Part shown: piece by piece, positions 3,936-24,034 of the stretch
Numbering within the stretch: the stretch's first letter is position 1
How the letters are laid out: every line of letters starts with the position of its first letter
Virus genome (UHGV): UHGV-0029496
DNA from: a virus
Direction: 5' to 3' (one strand)
Length of the DNA stretch: 24,034 bases
Made by a program: the position numbers and the translations under genes
The notes under the pieces: model-generated
Database searches by the model: none
What the model saw: only the letters and a program-made list of their open reading frames with translations
Told to the model about the DNA's origin: nothing

Positions 3936-5306
3936 TTAACCGTCCACATTAAAGTCGATACGAGTGATGTATTTACTACCCCACACGGAATCTGCCTGTG
4001 GAATAATGGCGTAATCATCTACAGCCGGAACGTTCACCATGGAGCCATCTGAATAGGCAATGTCGATACTTGTTGCGCCGTTCATTACTACTTTTGCTGA
4101 TGCCGTCGTGCGCGTTCCTGGTGACAATTCGGTTACTATCGGGGACGAGGCAAAGCCGCGTTTTTCTATTTGCGGATTGAAAACAATAATTCCGCTAATA
4201 CCATCTCCCTGAAATGAGCCGTTTGTTGCAGAGGCGTATAGCATAACCCTGTACTGAGCTGATAACGAAGATAGCCTCGATGCGTCGAAAGATATTGATA
4301 CAGACGCATAACCACCAAGATCCGCAATAGATGCCACTCCACCGAACGATGATTTGATAACTTTGCTATCAATGTCTGCAACAACAGATGCGACGTCAAA
4401 ATTATCCGAGTTTCTTATATATAATCTTAAAAAATCCAAACCATTACCAGCCGCTATGACGCTGAATGTAACATAATCTTCTGCATCTAATTGCATGTTT
4501 TGAGAAAAGTAATGAGACCCGCTGGTTGTAGTAGCGATCACTGAAAATATATCCGATGTAGCTTCTCTATTGACTGTGACGTTTGTTAGTGAAGAAGATG
4601 AAATGTCTCCTGAATTTATATAAAGATTTTCAGAATAATATTCTGGAGGCACCCGTCCGACAGCAACCCCATCGATAAACGTAAGGGGCCATTCATTTAC
4701 GGCGGACTGCACAAGATTACCGTTTCGGTTGATGTAATAAACCTGCGGCCCGTCATACACAATGCGACTATCCAGCGTGAGCGCCAGAAGGTTGATCGGC
4801 GGATAGCCGGCTGGCCCTTCATCGCTCCTGATGCGCGGGAACGTAGTCTCATAGTTCGCGTATACTTTCAGGAAACTACCCAGACAATCCCCGTAACAGC
4901 CATACAAATCTGGCAGATTCTTAGTAAGACATGTGTCTTCCTGAATTGCTGTGCGCTCTGCTGTAGCAGTAAACGTAATGACCCAGTTTTTACCGTCGTC
5001 TGTGCTATCGCTAATGTCGGACGTAATAAGAACCTTGTGGTCTTCGATACCTAAACCGGTATCATGAGGCATGATGAACGAAGATGCCCCGCCGTCTATG
5101 TTATTCAGGAAGCTATAGAAAGCCTGACGGCCTAGTGACGATACGACCAGGGTAACGCTAATAGGTACCGGTTCGAAGTATGTATCACGCCCCTGTCGAG
5201 GCACGCCACCTTGCACTTCTGTACGCCAGATATTACTCCCTCGCGTTTGGGAGTACCCCTTCGACACTATTGGTCGAAGGGACATAGGGAATCTCAAATC
5301 ACTCAT
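3936..5306 (-). CDS. Distal tail protein, gpM-like N-terminal domain with long C-terminal extension
   Basis: 456 aa directly after the tape measure gene; N-terminus has the GYSQ motif seen in lambda gpM (GDGYSQRAP); about 340 extra residues, partly encoded by a visibly AT-rich segment (about 4380-4700). Confidence 0.55.
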   Translation of the reverse strand: MSDLRFPMSLRPIVSKGYSQTRGSNIWRTEVQGGVPRQGRDTYFEPVPISVTLVVSSLGRQAFYSFLNNIDGGASSFIMPHDTGLGIEDHKVLITSDISDSTDDGKNWVITFTATAERTAIQEDTCLTKNLPDLYGCYGDCLGSFLKVYANYETTFPRIRSDEGPAGYPPINLLALTLDSRIVYDGPQVYYINRNGNLVQSAVNEWPLTFIDGVAVGRVPPEYYSENLYINSGDISSSSLTNVTVNREATSDIFSVIATTTSGSHYFSQNMQLDAEDYVTFSVIAAGNGLDFLRLYIRNSDNFDVASVVADIDSKVIKSSFGGVASIADLGGYASVSISFDASRLSSLSAQYRVMLYASATNGSFQGDGISGIIVFNPQIEKRGFASSPIVTELSPGTRTTASAKVVMNGATSIDIAYSDGSMVNVPAVDDYAIIPQADSVWGSKYITRIDFNVDG

Positions 5307-5309
5307 TGG

Positions 5310-7619
5310 TTAATACCCCGGCTGGTTTCGTGTAGCCCGGCGGGACTTGGAGATTGCACTGTTGCTGTCTTGTAACGCCGCCGATACTGTTTCACTGATG
5401 ATAACACGTAACCGCCCTTCGTCGTCACGCTCTGTAACGGCGGAATCAACTCGTCCGGTGGTGTTGTTGACGATTGTCACGCTGTCACCGCCTGACTTGT
5501 TGCCGTTCTCGCCCATAATCTGGCGCATTTGTTCGGCGGTACGGACGCGTGATGCCCCCGCTGGCATAATAACTTCAGGCTTGTTACGTTCGGCGATGGT
5601 GGATAGTTGCCCGGCGGCTAAGTTACCGCCCTGCTCACGAGCCGAACGAATCTTACCAATGTTCGCCAGACCTGCTGCTACCGCTGCCGCGGCAGCTACG
5701 GGGCCGAGTACCCATCCGACAATAGGAATCGCGGACGCAGATTTATAAGCCTCGATGGCGGAGGTGTATGTGGCTATTGTAGCCTGAGCAATAGCAAACG
5801 CTTTATACGCGCTAGACGCTTCACCAAGTGACGACTTAATATTGTCCGCCATCATGCCGAAAGCGTTACCCGTAGCGTTGGCGCGCTTCAAAGCATACTG
5901 GCCGTTTATCGCGTTAACCGCGGCCTGATACTGTTCCTCGTTTATAAGATTTTGTTCCCGGTACCGGTCTGCAACGTCCAGTTTTTGCTGTTCCTGAATC
6001 TCGAGAAGCTCAAGCTCAGCGGCATTCTGGCCCATAATCTGGGCCATGAAGTCTTCACCTTTCTGGTTCTTTTCCTGCCGTTCTTTCTCTCGCTTGGCGA
6101 GTTCTTCCTGGCGTGCGGTGTCCGCCTCCAGCATAATCTGAGTTTTGGCGTTTTCGTACTGCTGCTGGCTTATTGTTCCTGCTCGGTTGAACTCTTCGAG
6201 TTTCGCCAGTTTCTGTTCTTCCGCCGCGGTGATACGAGAAATTTCGTCTCCGGTTGTACGGTCAACCGTAGCTAGGAAATCTTCTGCGGCTTTCTTCTGG
6301 CGTTGTGCTGCCATTTCTTCACGTTTGGTCTGTGCCGCCAGACGTTCCTCGTTCGATTTAGCCTCTCGGTCGGCCTTCTCTTTCTCGGCCTTGTCAATGC
6401 GGGCGATGTCTTGCTGCGCTTCCGCGTCACGAGCGGCATTATACGCTGCAATCTGTTCTTTGGTGACGGCTTCACGTTTAGCGAACGCCTGTTTATCGAG
6501 TTCAGCTTGCGCCCGGATGCGCTCACGGTCACTTAGGATGGCGATTTGCTGGTTCTTAACAATGGCTTCGTTCTGTTCCTGGAATCTCTGCGTGGTTGAG
6601 TTGACGTTACGACCAAGATTCTTTTGAGCCTCCGCTGCCGCGTTTGCTGACTTCTCCGCGTTCTCCAGTGCCGTGGCGTTCTTGTTGGCATTGTCAGTAA
6701 GGCGTATAAGTTCCGGGTTCAACTGTTCCGTGTTACCTAGCCAGTCGGTGAACACATCGGCGATGCGACGGGCGTTCTCCGCGGTCGGCTCTTTGTTAAA
6801 CGCACTCTGCGCCGCTATCATCTCCAGCGCCTGGTCGCGGTTAACCCCGAACTTACTGCTAAGCTCCGCAATGTTCTGCGCCAGCATGTTGACGCCTACG
6901 ATATTACCCTCGTAAGTGCCGCCGAGTTTTTCTAACGTGTCGCCTACATCAACGCCCTTAGATACCAATGCATCATACTGGCTAATCGCCGATGCCGTGG
7001 ATGCTTTCCACGTTTCCCACGATTCTGCGTCCTCGCGAATGGCTTTAGCTGTTTGCTGCGCGATAAGGTCCGCGTTGGCCTTAGCTAGAGCAAGCTGAGT
7101 CTCCGCCGCTTCTCTGCTGATTTGGGTAAGCTGGATAAGGCCGTCTGTCAGTTCAAGAGAACCGGATGCCGTTTGCTGGAAAGTATCTTTTAACTGCTTC
7201 TGCGCAGCTTCGAGGTCTTTTGAACTGCCTTCTGCTTCGGTTAGCGATTTATACAGGACACCGCCAATTGCTGACGCAAGAGCAATTACAGCCCCAAGCA
7301 CCGCACCACCGGGGCCGAAAGCACCAGCAAGTTGGGAACCTTGCTGCCCTATCGCAACGAATGCAGACGTACCGGATTGCAACTGGACTACCATGTCCTG
7401 CACCTGGTAACCAACCTGCTCGGCGGCATTGCGGAACTTGGCAAAACCGTCGAACACGGCTTTAGACGTAGCGGAATTTACTTTATTAACATCCGGCGTT
7501 AGTTTGTTTACAGATGTGTCCGCCCGGTCTGCGGATGCCGCCATAGCGTCAAGCTGTTTAGCAGCTGCATCAGCGCCTTCTGTTTTTACTCTGGCAATTA
7601 GGGAAGCCGTATCAGCCAT
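5310..7619 (-). CDS. Tail tape measure protein
   Basis: Long Ala/Gln/Glu-rich alpha-helical ORF downstream of the G/T chaperone pair, with Gly-rich hydrophobic segments. Track start is TTG at 7634; first ATG is at 7619 (MADTASLIARVK...). Confidence 0.8.
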   Translation of the reverse strand: MADTASLIARVKTEGADAAAKQLDAMAASADRADTSVNKLTPDVNKVNSATSKAVFDGFAKFRNAAEQVGYQVQDMVVQLQSGTSAFVAIGQQGSQLAGAFGPGGAVLGAVIALASAIGGVLYKSLTEAEGSSKDLEAAQKQLKDTFQQTASGSLELTDGLIQLTQISREAAETQLALAKANADLIAQQTAKAIREDAESWETWKASTASAISQYDALVSKGVDVGDTLEKLGGTYEGNIVGVNMLAQNIAELSSKFGVNRDQALEMIAAQSAFNKEPTAENARRIADVFTDWLGNTEQLNPELIRLTDNANKNATALENAEKSANAAAEAQKNLGRNVNSTTQRFQEQNEAIVKNQQIAILSDRERIRAQAELDKQAFAKREAVTKEQIAAYNAARDAEAQQDIARIDKAEKEKADREAKSNEERLAAQTKREEMAAQRQKKAAEDFLATVDRTTGDEISRITAAEEQKLAKLEEFNRAGTISQQQYENAKTQIMLEADTARQEELAKREKERQEKNQKGEDFMAQIMGQNAAELELLEIQEQQKLDVADRYREQNLINEEQYQAAVNAINGQYALKRANATGNAFGMMADNIKSSLGEASSAYKAFAIAQATIATYTSAIEAYKSASAIPIVGWVLGPVAAAAAVAAGLANIGKIRSAREQGGNLAAGQLSTIAERNKPEVIMPAGASRVRTAEQMRQIMGENGNKSGGDSVTIVNNTTGRVDSAVTERDDEGRLRVIISETVSAALQDSNSAISKSRRATRNQPGY

Positions 7620-20835: not shown

Positions 20836-21450
20836 TTACTCCGTAGTTAGTTTACGATATACAGCCGCGCACTTTCGCCCGCAGGTGACACGAGGTTTAT
20901 AGCGGTTATGCTCGTGAGTAGCGCCGCAGACGGGGCATATAGCTGTTACGTTATCTACCCCCGAAGCCCGTCTATGTGCCGCTAAGCATCTTTTAGAACA
21001 AAAACAATTCTCGCCCTTTGTCGGTATGGCCGTAAACTCTTTGTTGCAATAAGAGCATATTTTTTCAACCTTAACGTGAAGTTTGTCTTTTGTGGCTTCG
21101 TAATGTGCCTTATGCCACTGCCGGCCTGCTTCACTGGCGTGCCACTCTTTAGTTAAATGCTGGTGCTTGCGGCCCATTTCGGCCGACCTGGCACGCGCTT
21201 CATCAGTAGAGAAATGCAGATAGCTATGGTCTGACGCCGAAAGCATCTCTAGGTTTTCTATTTGATTATTTGAGCGGTCTTCGTCTTTATGGTGGATGTC
21301 ATACCCTTCTGGGATTTCCCCGTTGAAATATGACCATACAACTCTGTGCAACCTTTTAACAATTGATGAGTTCATAAAATAGTTACCACACAAATAGTAA
21401 CGCGTACCGTTAAATTCTTGGATTGTTGGGGATATAACTTTTACTCGCAT
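20836..21450 (-). CDS. HNH endonuclease with C-terminal Cys-rich zinc-ribbon region
   Basis: HNH core YDIHHKDEDRSNNQIENLEMLSASDHSYLH; Cys clusters CSYCNKEF, CFCSKRC, CPVCGATHEH, CGRKC. Track start is TTG 21477; ATG 21450 follows an AGGAGG SD. Confidence 0.8.
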   Translation of the reverse strand: MRVKVISPTIQEFNGTRYYLCGNYFMNSSIVKRLHRVVWSYFNGEIPEGYDIHHKDEDRSNNQIENLEMLSASDHSYLHFSTDEARARSAEMGRKHQHLTKEWHASEAGRQWHKAHYEATKDKLHVKVEKICSYCNKEFTAIPTKGENCFCSKRCLAAHRRASGVDNVTAICPVCGATHEHNRYKPRVTCGRKCAAVYRKLTTE

Positions 21451-21506
21451 ATAGCCTCCTGATTGTTTACCTGACAATATCAGTAAGACCGATGCGAGTA
21501 AATACG

Positions 21507-22742
21507 CTATAACGTGAATCTGACAGGAGTGTTGATAACAGGGCGGACAACAGGGAACAACCTATGCATACAATAACCTAAACTGTCGTTCCAGTCGTCG
21601 ATAGCCGGGTGAGTTTTAAACTTCTCCGGTTCACCATTATCGTTATACCCCTGCGTCTCCAGTGACTGCGTCAATTTAGGGCATTTTGAAGTGTTAACCC
21701 TCAAACGGCTATGTGACAAAAGAGCGTTAACCGCGTTTATTCTGTCTTTAACGAATGGGTTCTTACTCGGAGCGTTAACACGTAAGCCGGCCTTTTCGAT
21801 GATACCTATGTCGGATAACGATGCGTTAGTGTGGCCTGAGCGACCAGAGGCGTCAGGGTAAACCGTAACCGTATGGCCCGGATACCGTATCCTGACATTA
21901 TTGACGAAGTCGTCGGTATTATGGCTGACAAACTCATCAACAACCGTCGGGTTGCCGTCTTCGATAATGCTCACGGTGGCGCAACAGCCGCCGATGTTAA
22001 AGTCCAACCCTATGTGCAGAGCGTCTCCGTTCTGCAAGGTGCGAGTGGAGTCATGTGTGTTTCGTTTGAAATAGTGATACACCTTATTGGCCGTCAAACT
22101 GACAAATTCACCGTTGATATACATATCAGCCAAAGCCGCGTCGTAGTTCCTTCGTATCTGCTCGACGTAGCCGTCAGGTAAATATGGGTTCGACAATGTA
22201 GACGCCTTAATCAGTTCCGTAGAACTGTCAGCGTTAGTAACCCAATAGTCATACACAAATCCGGAGAATCCCTGGTCGGGCGTAGTCACGGCGGCAATAC
22301 TGTTCCCGCCCCTACATGGCTGTCGGGTGCGCTCTGAAATTTTACGCCACACCAGGGACGCCTGTTCTTTAGTAAGAACGTCAAGTTCATCGGCGACAGA
22401 ATGGGCTACTTCAAAAGCGATTAGACGGTTCGGGTTGTCATAGGACCTGAAAAACATAGTACCGTACCCCTTAACATGGATACTGTATTCCGATTTGTTG
22501 AGGTCATACTTAAGCCCCATCATATTCAGGTCATCAACCACACCAGGGATGGCGCGCAGCTTCAACAGGTCATATGTAGGCATGGTGTACAGGGTGTTTA
22601 TCCCGCGCTCGCGCAACATGAGATACAGGAGGCGCATAGTGGCCGCGCGGGACTTGCCCGCCCCCAGTCCAGCGACAATAGCTGGATGTGTCTTTGTACT
22701 GAATACAAAGTCCTGTTGGGGTTCTGTTAATGGAATATCCAT
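21507..22742 (-). CDS. Terminase large subunit
   Basis: Walker A GLGAGKS near the N-terminus, Walker-B-like LIAFEVAHSVADE, C-terminal Asp-rich nuclease-like region; TAATG overlap with the upstream small ORF. Confidence 0.85.
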   Translation of the reverse strand: MDIPLTEPQQDFVFSTKTHPAIVAGLGAGKSRAATMRLLYLMLRERGINTLYTMPTYDLLKLRAIPGVVDDLNMMGLKYDLNKSEYSIHVKGYGTMFFRSYDNPNRLIAFEVAHSVADELDVLTKEQASLVWRKISERTRQPCRGGNSIAAVTTPDQGFSGFVYDYWVTNADSSTELIKASTLSNPYLPDGYVEQIRRNYDAALADMYINGEFVSLTANKVYHYFKRNTHDSTRTLQNGDALHIGLDFNIGGCCATVSIIEDGNPTVVDEFVSHNTDDFVNNVRIRYPGHTVTVYPDASGRSGHTNASLSDIGIIEKAGLRVNAPSKNPFVKDRINAVNALLSHSRLRVNTSKCPKLTQSLETQGYNDNGEPEKFKTHPAIDDWNDSLGYCMHRLFPVVRPVINTPVRFTL

Positions 22743-23254
22743 TACTCGCCCCCCGGTTTAACAGCCTTAACGAAACGAATCTCGATAGGTTCAGAACCCT
22801 CGCCAGTCGATTCTTCTTTCTTATTCAGGCCCAGCTTCGCGGCAGCAAACGTAGCAGAGATACCCGCGGCCCCTGTCTCAGTGAAATACGCCTCTTCCAG
22901 CGCCTGTGCTGTCTCCCAGGCTTCTGCAAATGCGGGAATCTCGCGCAGCCACAGTTTGATAATCGGGATGGTGACGCCGATGTGTAAGGCGAAGCGGGCC
23001 AGTGACGGCGGTTTATCCTGAATCAGCGGGCGCTCGTCACCCTTAGACGTAGGCACAAGTTCCCATGACGTGCGGTCGAAGAAACGAATCAATTCGTCAC
23101 AATAGTCCGGGTCCCACAACGCGGCGGAATTACGGGATGATTGATAAAGGCTCTGTTTGCCGCGCGGTCGTTTACGGCGACGGTTTGCGCTAACAGCTTC
23201 TTCATGTGCAGCTTGCACCACCTCTGGCGATGGCTGCTTGAGTTTCAGCTTCAT
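22742..23254 (-). CDS. Terminase small subunit (by position and HTH-like segment)
   Basis: Directly upstream of and overlapping the large terminase gene; basic N-terminus (RRRKRPRGK) and helix-turn-helix-like LARFALHIGVTIPIIKLWLRE. Track start is GTG 23293; ATG 23254 follows an AAGGGGA SD. Confidence 0.5.
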   Translation of the reverse strand: MKLKLKQPSPEVVQAAHEEAVSANRRRKRPRGKQSLYQSSRNSAALWDPDYCDELIRFFDRTSWELVPTSKGDERPLIQDKPPSLARFALHIGVTIPIIKLWLREIPAFAEAWETAQALEEAYFTETGAAGISATFAAAKLGLNKKEESTGEGSEPIEIRFVKAVKPGGE

Positions 23255-23294
23255 AGAATCCCCTTGCATATGCGTCTGACCATCAGAGCGCACC

Positions 23295-23325
23295 AGACGC
23301 GCCCTACGCGTCTAAAGGGATTATA
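23295..23325 (-). promoter_or_regulatory. Promoter / operator candidate upstream of the terminase genes
   Basis: Minus-strand TATAAT (plus 23320-23325) about 65 nt upstream of ATG 23254; inverted repeat agacgcg-cccta-cgcgtct (23295-23313) just downstream of it; GGGATT direct repeats nearby. Confidence 0.25.
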
Positions 23326-23345
23326 TAAGGGGATTGGGCGGGATG

Positions 23346-23372
23346 TACAGAAAAGCCATCCGTAGATGGCTT
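23346..23372 (-). terminator. Terminator-like hairpin upstream of the terminase genes
   Basis: agccatc-cgta-gatggct (7-8 bp stem) followed on the minus strand by UUUCUGUA. Confidence 0.45.
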
Positions 23373-23478
23373 GTCGGTCAGTTATATAGGCCGCGTCGTG
23401 GTGCTCTTTTACCATCGCCGCCGTAATGGTCGTTAGCTACGGCGATAGTCCAGGCGTTCGGGATGATTAACAGTTTCA

Positions 23479-23655
23479 TCAGCAAATATCTACCAGTACG
23501 TCGTAATTATCGCTTAGATACTGTAACGCATCCCCTCTTTCTACAAACTCGTCGCCAACAGCAAATGTTCCATCAGAGACGTCGATTAGGAGGTCATCGC
23601 GCCCGATAAACTGGAATACCACCTGCCCGTTGTCGTCAAGAAGCGTATGCAGCAT
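23479..23655 (-). CDS. Possible small acidic protein (58 aa)
   Basis: Hand-found ORF MLHTLLDDNGQVVFQFIGRDDLLIDVSDGTFAVGDEFVERGDALQYLSDNYDVLVDIC; no recognisable SD (A/U-rich upstream), so coding status is uncertain. Confidence 0.3.
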   Translation of the reverse strand: MLHTLLDDNGQVVFQFIGRDDLLIDVSDGTFAVGDEFVERGDALQYLSDNYDVLVDIC

Positions 23656-23676
23656 AAGTAATAATAGTTTTTTTGT

Positions 23677-23913
23677 TCATTCCCCACTCTCCTCTTTAGC
23701 AATACGTTGCTCAGTTTTAGTGATACCTCGGCGCGTGAATAATACCGGGCTTGTCTTAACGTGCGTCATCAGACGGTTGTTATAAATTACGTGGCGCTCG
23801 CAGTTCACGTCTTTGCTGTACTTCGCAATCGTCATTTCGTTGATGCCGGTTTGTCGGCATGTCTCGGCCATCGTACCAAATTCTTTAATCAGGTTCGGAA
23901 TGCTGGTAATCAT
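23677..23913 (-). CDS. Small HTH DNA-binding protein
   Basis: HTH-like segment TMAETCRQTGINEMTIAKY. Track start is GTG 23937; ATG 23913 forms an ATGA overlap with the stop of the upstream minus-strand frame. Confidence 0.55.
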   Translation of the reverse strand: MITSIPNLIKEFGTMAETCRQTGINEMTIAKYSKDVNCERHVIYNNRLMTHVKTSPVLFTRRGITKTEQRIAKEESGE

Positions 23914-24034
23914 CCTAAGAAATTCCTCGTTGTCCACATAGCATTCGGGTACTTGTTATCGCGGTCCCGTACTACGGCAATCATGTTTCCGCGCTGCATC
24001 AGGCAAAAGTGCCGTTGTTGTTCGCCGTTGTAGC
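23910..24034 (-). CDS. Hypothetical protein, C-terminal part (gene enters from beyond the window end)
   Basis: Minus-strand frame open from the window edge to TGA at 23910-23912 (...AVVRDRDNKYPNAMWTTRNFLG*), with the stop overlapping the next ATG. Confidence 0.35.
   Translation of the reverse strand, partial: YNGEQQRHFCLMQRGNMIAVVRDRDNKYPNAMWTTRNFLG

Follow-up and report, generated by a model that had tools for sequence, protein, structure and literature searches.

The stretch of DNA analyzed here, hereafter the window, is the 24,034-nucleotide sequence of virus genome UHGV-0029496 and comes from a Kagunavirus (Guernseyvirinae) whose genes lie on the minus strand. Our subject is a region of about 420 bp (23255–23676) that separates a NinH-like gene, the helix-turn-helix (HTH) gene of a first-pass annotation made from the letters alone, from terS, the gene of the small terminase subunit; that annotation proposed a packaging-initiation or regulatory site for the region. 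In annotated relatives the minus-strand gene order runs from lysin, small nin-like open reading frames (ORFs) and a NinH-family gene through a variable small-ORF cassette to terS, terL and portal. A megablast search with 22600–24034 returned 210 phage records, nearly all Kagunavirus or Jerseyvirus, at 80–99% identity, and our comparisons draw on about 90 related loci from IMG/VR, metagenomes and GenBank; a metagenome scan for distant TerS relatives retrieved close ones only. About 280 of the 420 bp are coding or ex-coding, and the true intergenic part is the 123 bp from 23255 to 23377. The earlier description of a structured 420-bp region thus holds for this shorter stretch and not for the whole. 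In the direction of transcription, the 123 bp contain a predicted terminator, a promoter-like site, an RNA leader of two hairpins (HP1 and HP2) and the Shine–Dalgarno (SD) stretch of terS (Table 1).

The terminator-like hairpin that had been reported at 23353–23372 is present. In DNA it reads AAGCCATC-tacg-GATGGCTT and is followed on the minus strand by TTTTCT (23352–23347), i.e., the transcribed strand carries a G+C-rich hairpin and then a U tract at a gene 3′ end, beginning 5 nt past the stop codon of a conserved 33-aa gene. The RNA folds at −14.4 kcal/mol (z = −5.3). Its stem takes compensated forms in different lineages (GCCAUC/GAUGGC in the window, GCCCUC/GAGGGC and GCCCGC/GCGGGC); the CCAUC/GAUGG of the window is private among the loci, all other Kagunavirus loci having CCCUC/GAGGG, and the homologous hairpin is annotated as "terminator" in the record of phage Snoke. 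Our terminator scan, which required five Ts, missed the hairpin at 23347–23372 for its T count only. By these features, transcripts arriving from upstream would be expected to end at 23347–23352.

A minus-strand TATAAT at 23320–23325, also listed in the first-pass annotation, was recovered as the −10 hexamer of the site that most resembles a promoter on the window's coding strand; its −35 hexamer had not been noted. The combination TGTACA-18-TATAAT corresponds to a sigma-70 promoter in both hexamers (10 of 12 matches) and spacing (18 bp), and places the predicted transcription start (+1) at 23313 by standard spacing from the −10. The −10 reads TACAAT in Jerseyvirus, TATAAT in Cornellvirus and Eiauvirus, and TGnTATAAT in Dhillonvirus. 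Judged from the single sequence, promoter-like sites are as frequent as in shuffled sequences (2 versus 2.0 expected), as are terminator-like sites, and the case therefore rests on comparison with relatives. Between the Kagunavirus and Jerseyvirus consensus sequences, identity is 1.0 in the −35, 0.83 in the −10 and 0.33 in the spacer, with 0.56 at third codon positions for reference. The spacer is the least conserved part of the region, yet measures 18 bp in both genera; invariant hexamers around a free spacer of fixed length are a promoter signature. Within Kagunavirus, where both hexamers and the U tract overlapping the −35 do not vary, column homogeneity reaches 0.967 for 23372–23255, versus 0.955 at codon positions 1 and 2 and 0.748 at position 3 of terS. 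It drops to about 0.6, with gaps, immediately upstream of the terminator, which marks a mosaic boundary at this point.

The leader extends over 59 nt from the predicted +1, and HP1 and HP2 make up its first 45 nt. The first-pass annotation had identified an inverted repeat with 7-bp arms at 23295–23313 (AGACGCG/CGCGTCT), which is present and lies within HP1; HP2, which directly abuts it, had escaped notice. Four Guernseyvirinae lineages, two Dhillonvirus lineages and Eiauvirus share the same two-hairpin minimum-energy fold. Among 14 distinct sequences, 99.2% of 266 alignment cells form standard pairs versus a shuffled mean of 93.1%, and none of 500 shuffles reaches the observed value. Three pairs are altered on both sides (13 cells), giving a covariation score of 0.245 versus 0.141, again unmatched in 500 shuffles, while controls in which partners were slid by 1–3 columns pair at no more than 56%. 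One-sided changes are all wobble-compatible (A:U to G:U, C:G to U:G and G:C to G:U, with 33 G:U cells in total). Read on the opposite strand, such wobbles would not pair; the structure is therefore one of the minus-strand transcript rather than a palindrome in DNA. The counts come from one alignment (A4), since a MAFFT alignment (A3) puts the Cornellvirus 3′ arm of HP2 in the wrong place; a model-made alignment (A6) with antisense matches and misaligned Dhillonvirus sequences was kept out of the counts. A long-range GCGUCUG/CAGACGC pairing in place of HP2 was rejected, because the partner that compensates for the 3′-arm change in Jerseyvirus lies in the local arm of HP2 and not in HP1.

With a covariance model built from Guernseyvirinae only, the element is recovered at its expected position before terS in Dhillonvirus (E = 0.009), in Cornellvirus (67 bits) and in Eiauvirus (E = 0.0015), and exactly once each in the window and in the complete genome of the Kagunavirus relative fEg-Eco19. 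In the Cornellvirus-like lineage (St162, vB_STM-ZS, Shemara and several IMG/VR contigs), TerS is about 30% identical to that of the window, and the layout of terminator, promoter and leader is kept, with the element about 75% identical. Dhillonvirus TerS is about 35% identical over its central part. Its gene is preceded by a terminator, an extended −10 promoter (TGTTATAAT), an HP1 of the form AGAUGGC-AGG-GCCGUCU and an HP2 of the form AUG-u-UGCCGA-UGG-UCGGCGCAU; in a divergent Dhillonvirus locus (L120), HP1 is AGGUGGU-UGG-GCCACCU. Edwardsiella phage eiAU-183 (Eiauvirus) has TATAAT, then GGCGGGCC-AGG-GGUCCGCC and then GCG-uu-UGGA-UGG-UCCA-c-CGC. The stems thus differ among lineages, that of HP1 in Eiauvirus being entirely different. 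Exceptions to the apical AGG are UGG in L120 and one Cornellvirus-like locus and, in a single Kagunavirus variant, GGG. The representatives of all six lineages share an unchanged apical GAUGGUC; HP2 departs from the common form at two Kagunavirus loci, by GAUGAUC in one case and by a G-to-A change that breaks a lower-stem pair in the other. The predicted +1 sits 0–3 nt before the base of HP1 in all six lineages. A scan of 22600–24034 with the covariance models of Rfam 15 gave no match at E ≤ 1, and we found no description of the two-hairpin leader in Rfam or in the literature that we searched. These comparisons suggest that HP1–HP2 is a new phage RNA motif, compact and conserved over a wide range, although its general kind is known.

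GGGATT direct repeats, another element of the first-pass annotation, occur at 23317–23322 and 23330–23335 within the 10-nt repeats TAAAGGGATT and TAAGGGGATT. Both are complementary to the terS SD, a relationship that had not been noted, and are referred to here as anti-SD copies. Since they lie upstream of the predicted +1, only transcripts passing the terminator would contain them. In the fold of this read-through RNA, a long-range helix closes over HP1–HP2 and buries the SD (z = −4.3 for a 130-nt Kagunavirus RNA), and the minimum-energy structure uses copy 1. Burial of the SD is predicted for read-through RNAs of Kagunavirus, Jerseyvirus and both Cornellvirus-like lineages. Across 52 distinct sequences, the 8-bp core helix, in which the −10-proximal AAUCC.. 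faces ..GGAUU, is 94.7% paired with two pairs altered on both sides, versus at most 61% in slid controls. The G-rich core of the SD and the (A)UU that follows it are conserved in Guernseyvirinae, and the Jerseyvirus change of the −10 from TATAAT to TACAAT is matched behind the SD by a change from AUUA/AUUC to AUUG.

We consider it likely that the region is the junction of an accessory and a morphogenesis operon, composed of a terminator, a promoter, a leader that acts at the RNA level and an occlusion device for read-through transcripts, and that it is not a packaging initiation site. The upstream accessory (nin-like) unit would end at the intrinsic terminator (23372–23347), and a host sigma-70 promoter placed against this terminator would start the terminase mRNA at about 23313, at the head of the terS–terL morphogenesis operon. 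The first 45 nt of the message would fold into HP1 and HP2, followed by a free SD and the terS start codon, with the hairpins acting at the RNA level. A stem-loop that starts at +1 is a classical means of protecting E. coli mRNAs from 5′-end-dependent decay, and we infer that the 5′-terminal stem-loop could protect the long late mRNA in this way. The invariant apical AGG and GAUGGUC may, in addition, point to a bound factor. In read-through transcripts, we further infer, the terS ribosome site would be sequestered, such that the terminase would be translated only from its own promoter. Translation of terL would probably follow suit, its start codon sharing the TGATG at 22742 with the terS stop. 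Of the two functions proposed for the region by the first-pass annotation, regulation is the one that stands, through the conserved terminator, promoter and structured leader directly upstream of terS; packaging, discussed below, does not.

Each part of this arrangement has relatives among known systems. The stabilizing function resembles that of the ompA 5′ untranslated region (UTR), reportedly described by Emory, Bouvet and Belasco in 1992 as an mRNA stabilizer with a 5′-terminal stem-loop; as in that case, a stable hairpin stands within 0–3 nt of the predicted 5′ end, here in six lineages. Unlike ompA-type stabilizers, the leader has two hairpins with invariant loops, which a generic stabilizer does not need. 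Blocking of the ribosome binding site (RBS) on read-through transcripts is said to have been found for the T4 genes e (lysozyme), soc and 49 (McPheeters 1986; Macdonald 1984; Barth 1988), and IS10 transposase reportedly enjoys a similar "protection from outside transcription" (Davis, Simons and Kleckner 1985). The window shares with these systems an SD-complementary segment upstream of the gene's own transcription start, by which only longer, upstream transcripts form the helix, and with Tn10 an upstream terminator as a second layer of insulation. In contrast to T4 e/soc/49 and IS10, its helix is long-range and closes over a 45-nt domain of two hairpins, and the anti-SD is supplied by DNA of the −10 and discriminator, duplicated in Kagunavirus. 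A terminator followed by a promoter before terminase genes is ordinary, the terminator is annotated in at least one relative, and RBS occlusion on read-through is a known device.

Several points weigh against our interpretation. The covariation in HP1–HP2 comes from roughly ten substitutions, one of them breaking a pair, in about four lineages, and relatedness among the sequences inflates the shuffle test. Single-sequence folds of the leader have modest z scores (−1.1 to −2.4), which are not significant in Dhillonvirus or Eiauvirus. SD-like and C-rich sequences pair easily by chance; several Kagunavirus and Cornellvirus variants mismatch in the anti-SD helix (eight unpaired cells at each of two pairs), and Eiauvirus lacks this helix, of which Dhillonvirus has only a weak form; it is therefore a Guernseyvirinae addition to an older hairpin core. 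We found no transcript mapping for this phage group in the literature searched, and both the +1 and the termination site are predictions. A simple stabilizer, moreover, needs no invariant loops, and a stabilizing role is at best a partial account of the leader. Finally, the argument against packaging is carried by a single PhageTerm study of a close relative.

The invariance of the loops while the stems were rewritten argues for a specific partner, and readings of this type were weighed against the one that we rank first, i.e., a promoter-proximal leader with a stabilizing effect on the message, for which the terminator and the anti-SD repeats provide insulation; jointly, we consider the specific-partner readings unlikely. 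In their general form, HP1–HP2 would be an undescribed family of cis-acting RNAs at the start of the terminase operons of at least five genera of enterobacterial siphoviruses that binds either the host RNA polymerase or another host factor, for factor-independent antitermination or anti-pausing of the put type, or TerS, for autogenous control of translation; to this we give a small though real chance. One specific version, which we regard as rather improbable, is a put-like or factor-bound RNA that modifies the transcribing polymerase and thereby allows read-through of terminators within the late operon of more than 20 kb. Two abutting stem-loops at the extreme 5′ end are also seen in HK022 putL (PMC9378689), and the apical sequences are invariant in representatives of genera that share little but enterobacterial hosts. 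The late operon itself contains strong minus-strand terminator-like hairpins (19339–19324, 17477–17458, 15086–15065, 10484–10463 and 7840–7819), three of them identical in fEg-Eco19, and no comparably good coding-strand promoter follows them. These hairpins lie in intergenic gaps, have GNRA, UUCG and other tight loops and are followed by U tracts, which leads one to ask how late transcription gets past them. HK022 put, however, is a double stem-loop of some 70 nt, contains bulges and a triple helix, and binds the zinc-binding domain of the RNA polymerase β′ subunit (PMC9378689; PMC8632103). The window element resembles it in being a double stem-loop directly after a sigma-70 promoter at the head of a long, terminator-containing operon, and differs from it in consisting of simple hairpins of 45–47 nt with one bulge and neither internal loops nor a triple helix. 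The covariance model finds nothing in the HK022 early region, and partial internal terminators are common in phage late operons that have no antitermination. CsrA-type sites were discarded on the sequence itself, the loops being AGG(G) and UGG and not GGA, and so was a lambda Q-type qut site, for want of a −10-like pause element in the initial transcribed sequence. The leader would gain wider interest if it bound RNA polymerase or TerS. TerS is the simplest candidate for a phage protein that uses HP1–HP2 as an mRNA operator, which would amount to autogenous control of terminase translation. The element is a constant companion of this TerS family and occurs once per genome, its invariant loops and the end of HP2 about 5 nt before the SD stretch would suit an operator, and TerS has a conserved basic N-terminal tail across clades. 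Against this, TerS identity falls to about 30% at loci where that of the RNA still stands at about 75%, and we know of no terminase that binds its own mRNA; we give the operator little credence.

The remaining alternatives explain the conservation at the level of DNA or protein. In the former, TerS would bind the region or its repeats as a pac site, with the first headful cut made here or nearby. The family does package by a headful (pac) mechanism, packaging sites often lie in or near terS, and the element has been passed on across genera together with this TerS family. A position next to terS and the presence of short repeats are features that the region has in common with phage pac sites such as those of P22 and P1. 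In fEg-Eco19, however, whose leader is 97.8% identical to that of the window, a sharp peak of read starts (T = 0.65) together with restriction mapping places the cut about 5.2 kb upstream of terS. The substitutions in the element preserve RNA pairing through G:U wobbles and compensatory changes, which recognition of DNA does not require, and, like the remote cut, set the element apart from phage pac sites. The persistence of the element beside a strongly diverged TerS also speaks against a site read by this protein, and genome records that start near it reflect annotation conventions and not physical ends. We therefore regard a pac site in this region as very improbable. Scarcely credible, in our view, is that the HP2 stretch is conserved as protein, with terS starting at an upstream GTG/ATG at 23293. 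The frame is open from 23293 in the window, and this longer ORF is annotated in many records. No SD precedes 23293, however, whereas a strong and conserved one precedes the ATG at 23254; an in-frame TGA closes the extension in one relative (L073); the changes are paired across the hairpin (C:G to A:U), are accompanied by indels of 1–2 nt and do not follow codons; and conservation of the TerS protein begins at MKLKLK/MKIGKAK.

The packaging data of fEg-Eco19 deserve a closer look. PhageTerm analysis found its left end at position 1 (T = 0.65, p = 2.35e-25) and a distributed right end (PMC9038960), and assigned the phage to the "Headful (pac), P1" type, with redundant, permuted ends and forward orientation (PMC9038960). 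Eight restriction digests agree with a pac organization (PMC9038960). In the same record, terS (g18, which has an HHpred hit to P22 gp3) occupies 5206–5751 and the HP1–HP2 element 5146–5190; the right end of the window corresponds to about position 4571, and the pac cut would thus lie some 4.6 kb beyond it. The first-pass annotation, which had expected a cos or pac site upstream of terS, named genome ends mapping elsewhere as evidence to the contrary, and in this relative that is where they map. By analogy, a packaging start in the region is not supported. The premise of that annotation, that such sites adjoin terS on the upstream side, is also not general, the annotated pac of P22 lying inside gene 3. 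When the ends of the fEg-Eco19 record are joined, the cut is seen to be intergenic, just after a terminator hairpin CGCTGCTACCCAGCAGCG with T runs; two ACGCAACAAT repeats and a promoter-like TTGCAC...TATAAT site follow it. The true Kagunavirus pac region may be found in this stretch. Two other members, Snoke and Shashou, have been reported as pac-type headful phages without a position, and no obvious termini were reported for fBC-Eco01. The relationship of TerS to that of P22 looked different by method: window TerS against P22 gp3 gave an hhalign probability of 0.5% with shallow profiles and had no sequence hit in the PDB, while depositors report HHpred values of 99.4–99.6% for TerS to P22 gp3/3P9A.

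Many GenBank and IMG/VR records start inside the element or beside it. Such starts were considered as physical ends and rejected, each of those examined coinciding with the called terS ORF or its RBS or copying an earlier record. Records that start at the called ORF or RBS include Bas75/76, SZH-1, Snoke, DUEC01 and Jerseyvirus records. The records of four Dhillonvirus isolates all open precisely on the TATAAT that precedes terS. For Dhillonvirus EE09, a 10-nt 5′ cos end, ATCTTAAGGG, has been reported; its terminase genes are CDS37/38, and the record was reordered on the predicted termini (PMC10673088). The start common to the four isolates therefore looks like a copied convention. Many database records, among them five of the related loci, start terS at a GTG or ATG within HP2 (23293), which adds 13 codons, and in Snoke terS is called with 195 codons from an upstream start. 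These upstream starts are probably mis-called, the SD-backed ATG at 23254 being the likely true one. For annotation, terS is accordingly best begun at ATG 23254, and records that begin here do not mark physical ends. For engineering of Kagunavirus and Jerseyvirus, both in use for therapy and synthetic biology, the analysis locates where the morphogenesis transcript probably starts, together with an arrangement of terminator and anti-SD that would insulate it. Conserved in Kagunavirus, Jerseyvirus, Cornellvirus, Dhillonvirus and Eiauvirus despite changing stems, the leader offers a small and defined candidate for a new phage RNA regulatory element.

Table 1. Genes and predicted signals around the terS upstream region, in the order of transcription (window positions; SD, Shine–Dalgarno).
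Feature	Positions	Strand	Remarks
NinH-like gene, 78 aa from ATG	23677–23913	minus	phrog_268, 4e-30; NinH family in annotations of relatives
14-codon out-of-frame stub	23636–23680	minus	starts at the ATG of the ancestral 66-aa gene; ATGA overlap with ninH stop
58-aa ORF, 5′-truncated rest of 66-aa accessory gene	23479–23655	minus	no SD
Conserved 33-aa gene (MKLLIIPNAW...GLYN)	23378–23479	minus	phrog_32259, 2e-18, full length
Intrinsic terminator (predicted)	23347–23372	minus	stem AAGCCAUC/GAUGGCUU, UACG loop, then UUUUCU
−35 hexamer TGTACA	23344–23349	minus	overlaps terminator U tract; invariant in Kagunavirus and Jerseyvirus
Anti-SD copy 1, RNA AAUCCCCUU (distal GGGATT)	23327–23335	minus	within promoter spacer; Kagunavirus-specific
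−10 hexamer TATAAT	23320–23325	minus	invariant within Kagunavirus
Anti-SD copy 2, RNA AAUCCCUUU (proximal GGGATT)	23314–23322	minus	spans 3′ end of −10 and discriminator
HP1 RNA hairpin (U)AGACGCGU-AGG-GCGCGUCU(G)	23294–23314	minus	predicted +1 (23313) is its first base
HP2 RNA hairpin GUGCG-c-UCUGA-UGG-UCAGACGCAU	23270–23293	minus	directly abuts HP1; fold and C:G to A:U compensatory change
SD stretch AAGGGGAUU	23257–23265	minus	GGGG run ends 5 nt before ATG 23254
terS, 170 aa	22742–23254	minus	ATG 23254; phrog_3064 "terminase", 6.5e-72; start agrees with hz69 annotation
terL	21507–22742	minus	Terminase_6N/6C

The rest of the 420 bp is occupied by small genes. The first-pass annotation had listed a possible ORF of 58 aa without an SD at 23479–23655, and this ORF is indeed present. 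Searches of Pfam and PHROG gave no match for it, and homologues were found in only two of the loci compared, KMB36 and one other (L056), where the gene is intact with 66 codons, its ATG overlapping the ninH stop (ATGA) behind a good SD. Alignment with these loci shows one extra A in the window, in a minus-strand run of seven (23668–23674) in place of five. The resulting frameshift splits the gene into the 14-codon stub and the 58-aa ORF, which lacks an SD because it is the 5′-truncated remainder. Either a genuine mutation or a sequencing error in the homopolymer could account for the extra A.

Downstream of it lies the 33-aa gene, which was not among the ORFs listed by the first-pass annotation and whose ATG overlaps the stop of the 58-aa ORF (TGATG). 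Together with the overlap between terS and terL at 22742, this overlap at 23479 suggests translational coupling. The 33-codon ORF is intact at exactly this length in 57 Kagunavirus and Jerseyvirus loci and is annotated in hz69 and KMB36; homogeneity is 0.907, 0.934 and 0.782 at codon positions 1, 2 and 3, i.e., third positions vary most. Its product has a hydrophobic N-terminus and a tail of the form ...NDHYGGDGKRAPRxGLYN. The gene usually stands directly before the terminator; in some loci it is found 100–350 bp further upstream, with an insert between. The NinH-like gene gives a weak match to Pfam PF06322 (Phage_NinH), under the family cut-off. Further downstream, an HNH_3 endonuclease gene (20836–21477, minus strand) lies between terL and the portal gene. 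It was found in 1 of 94 related phage records (Ec1-ASingh), while in hz69 and others terL adjoins portal, and by this distribution it looks like a recent homing-endonuclease insertion.

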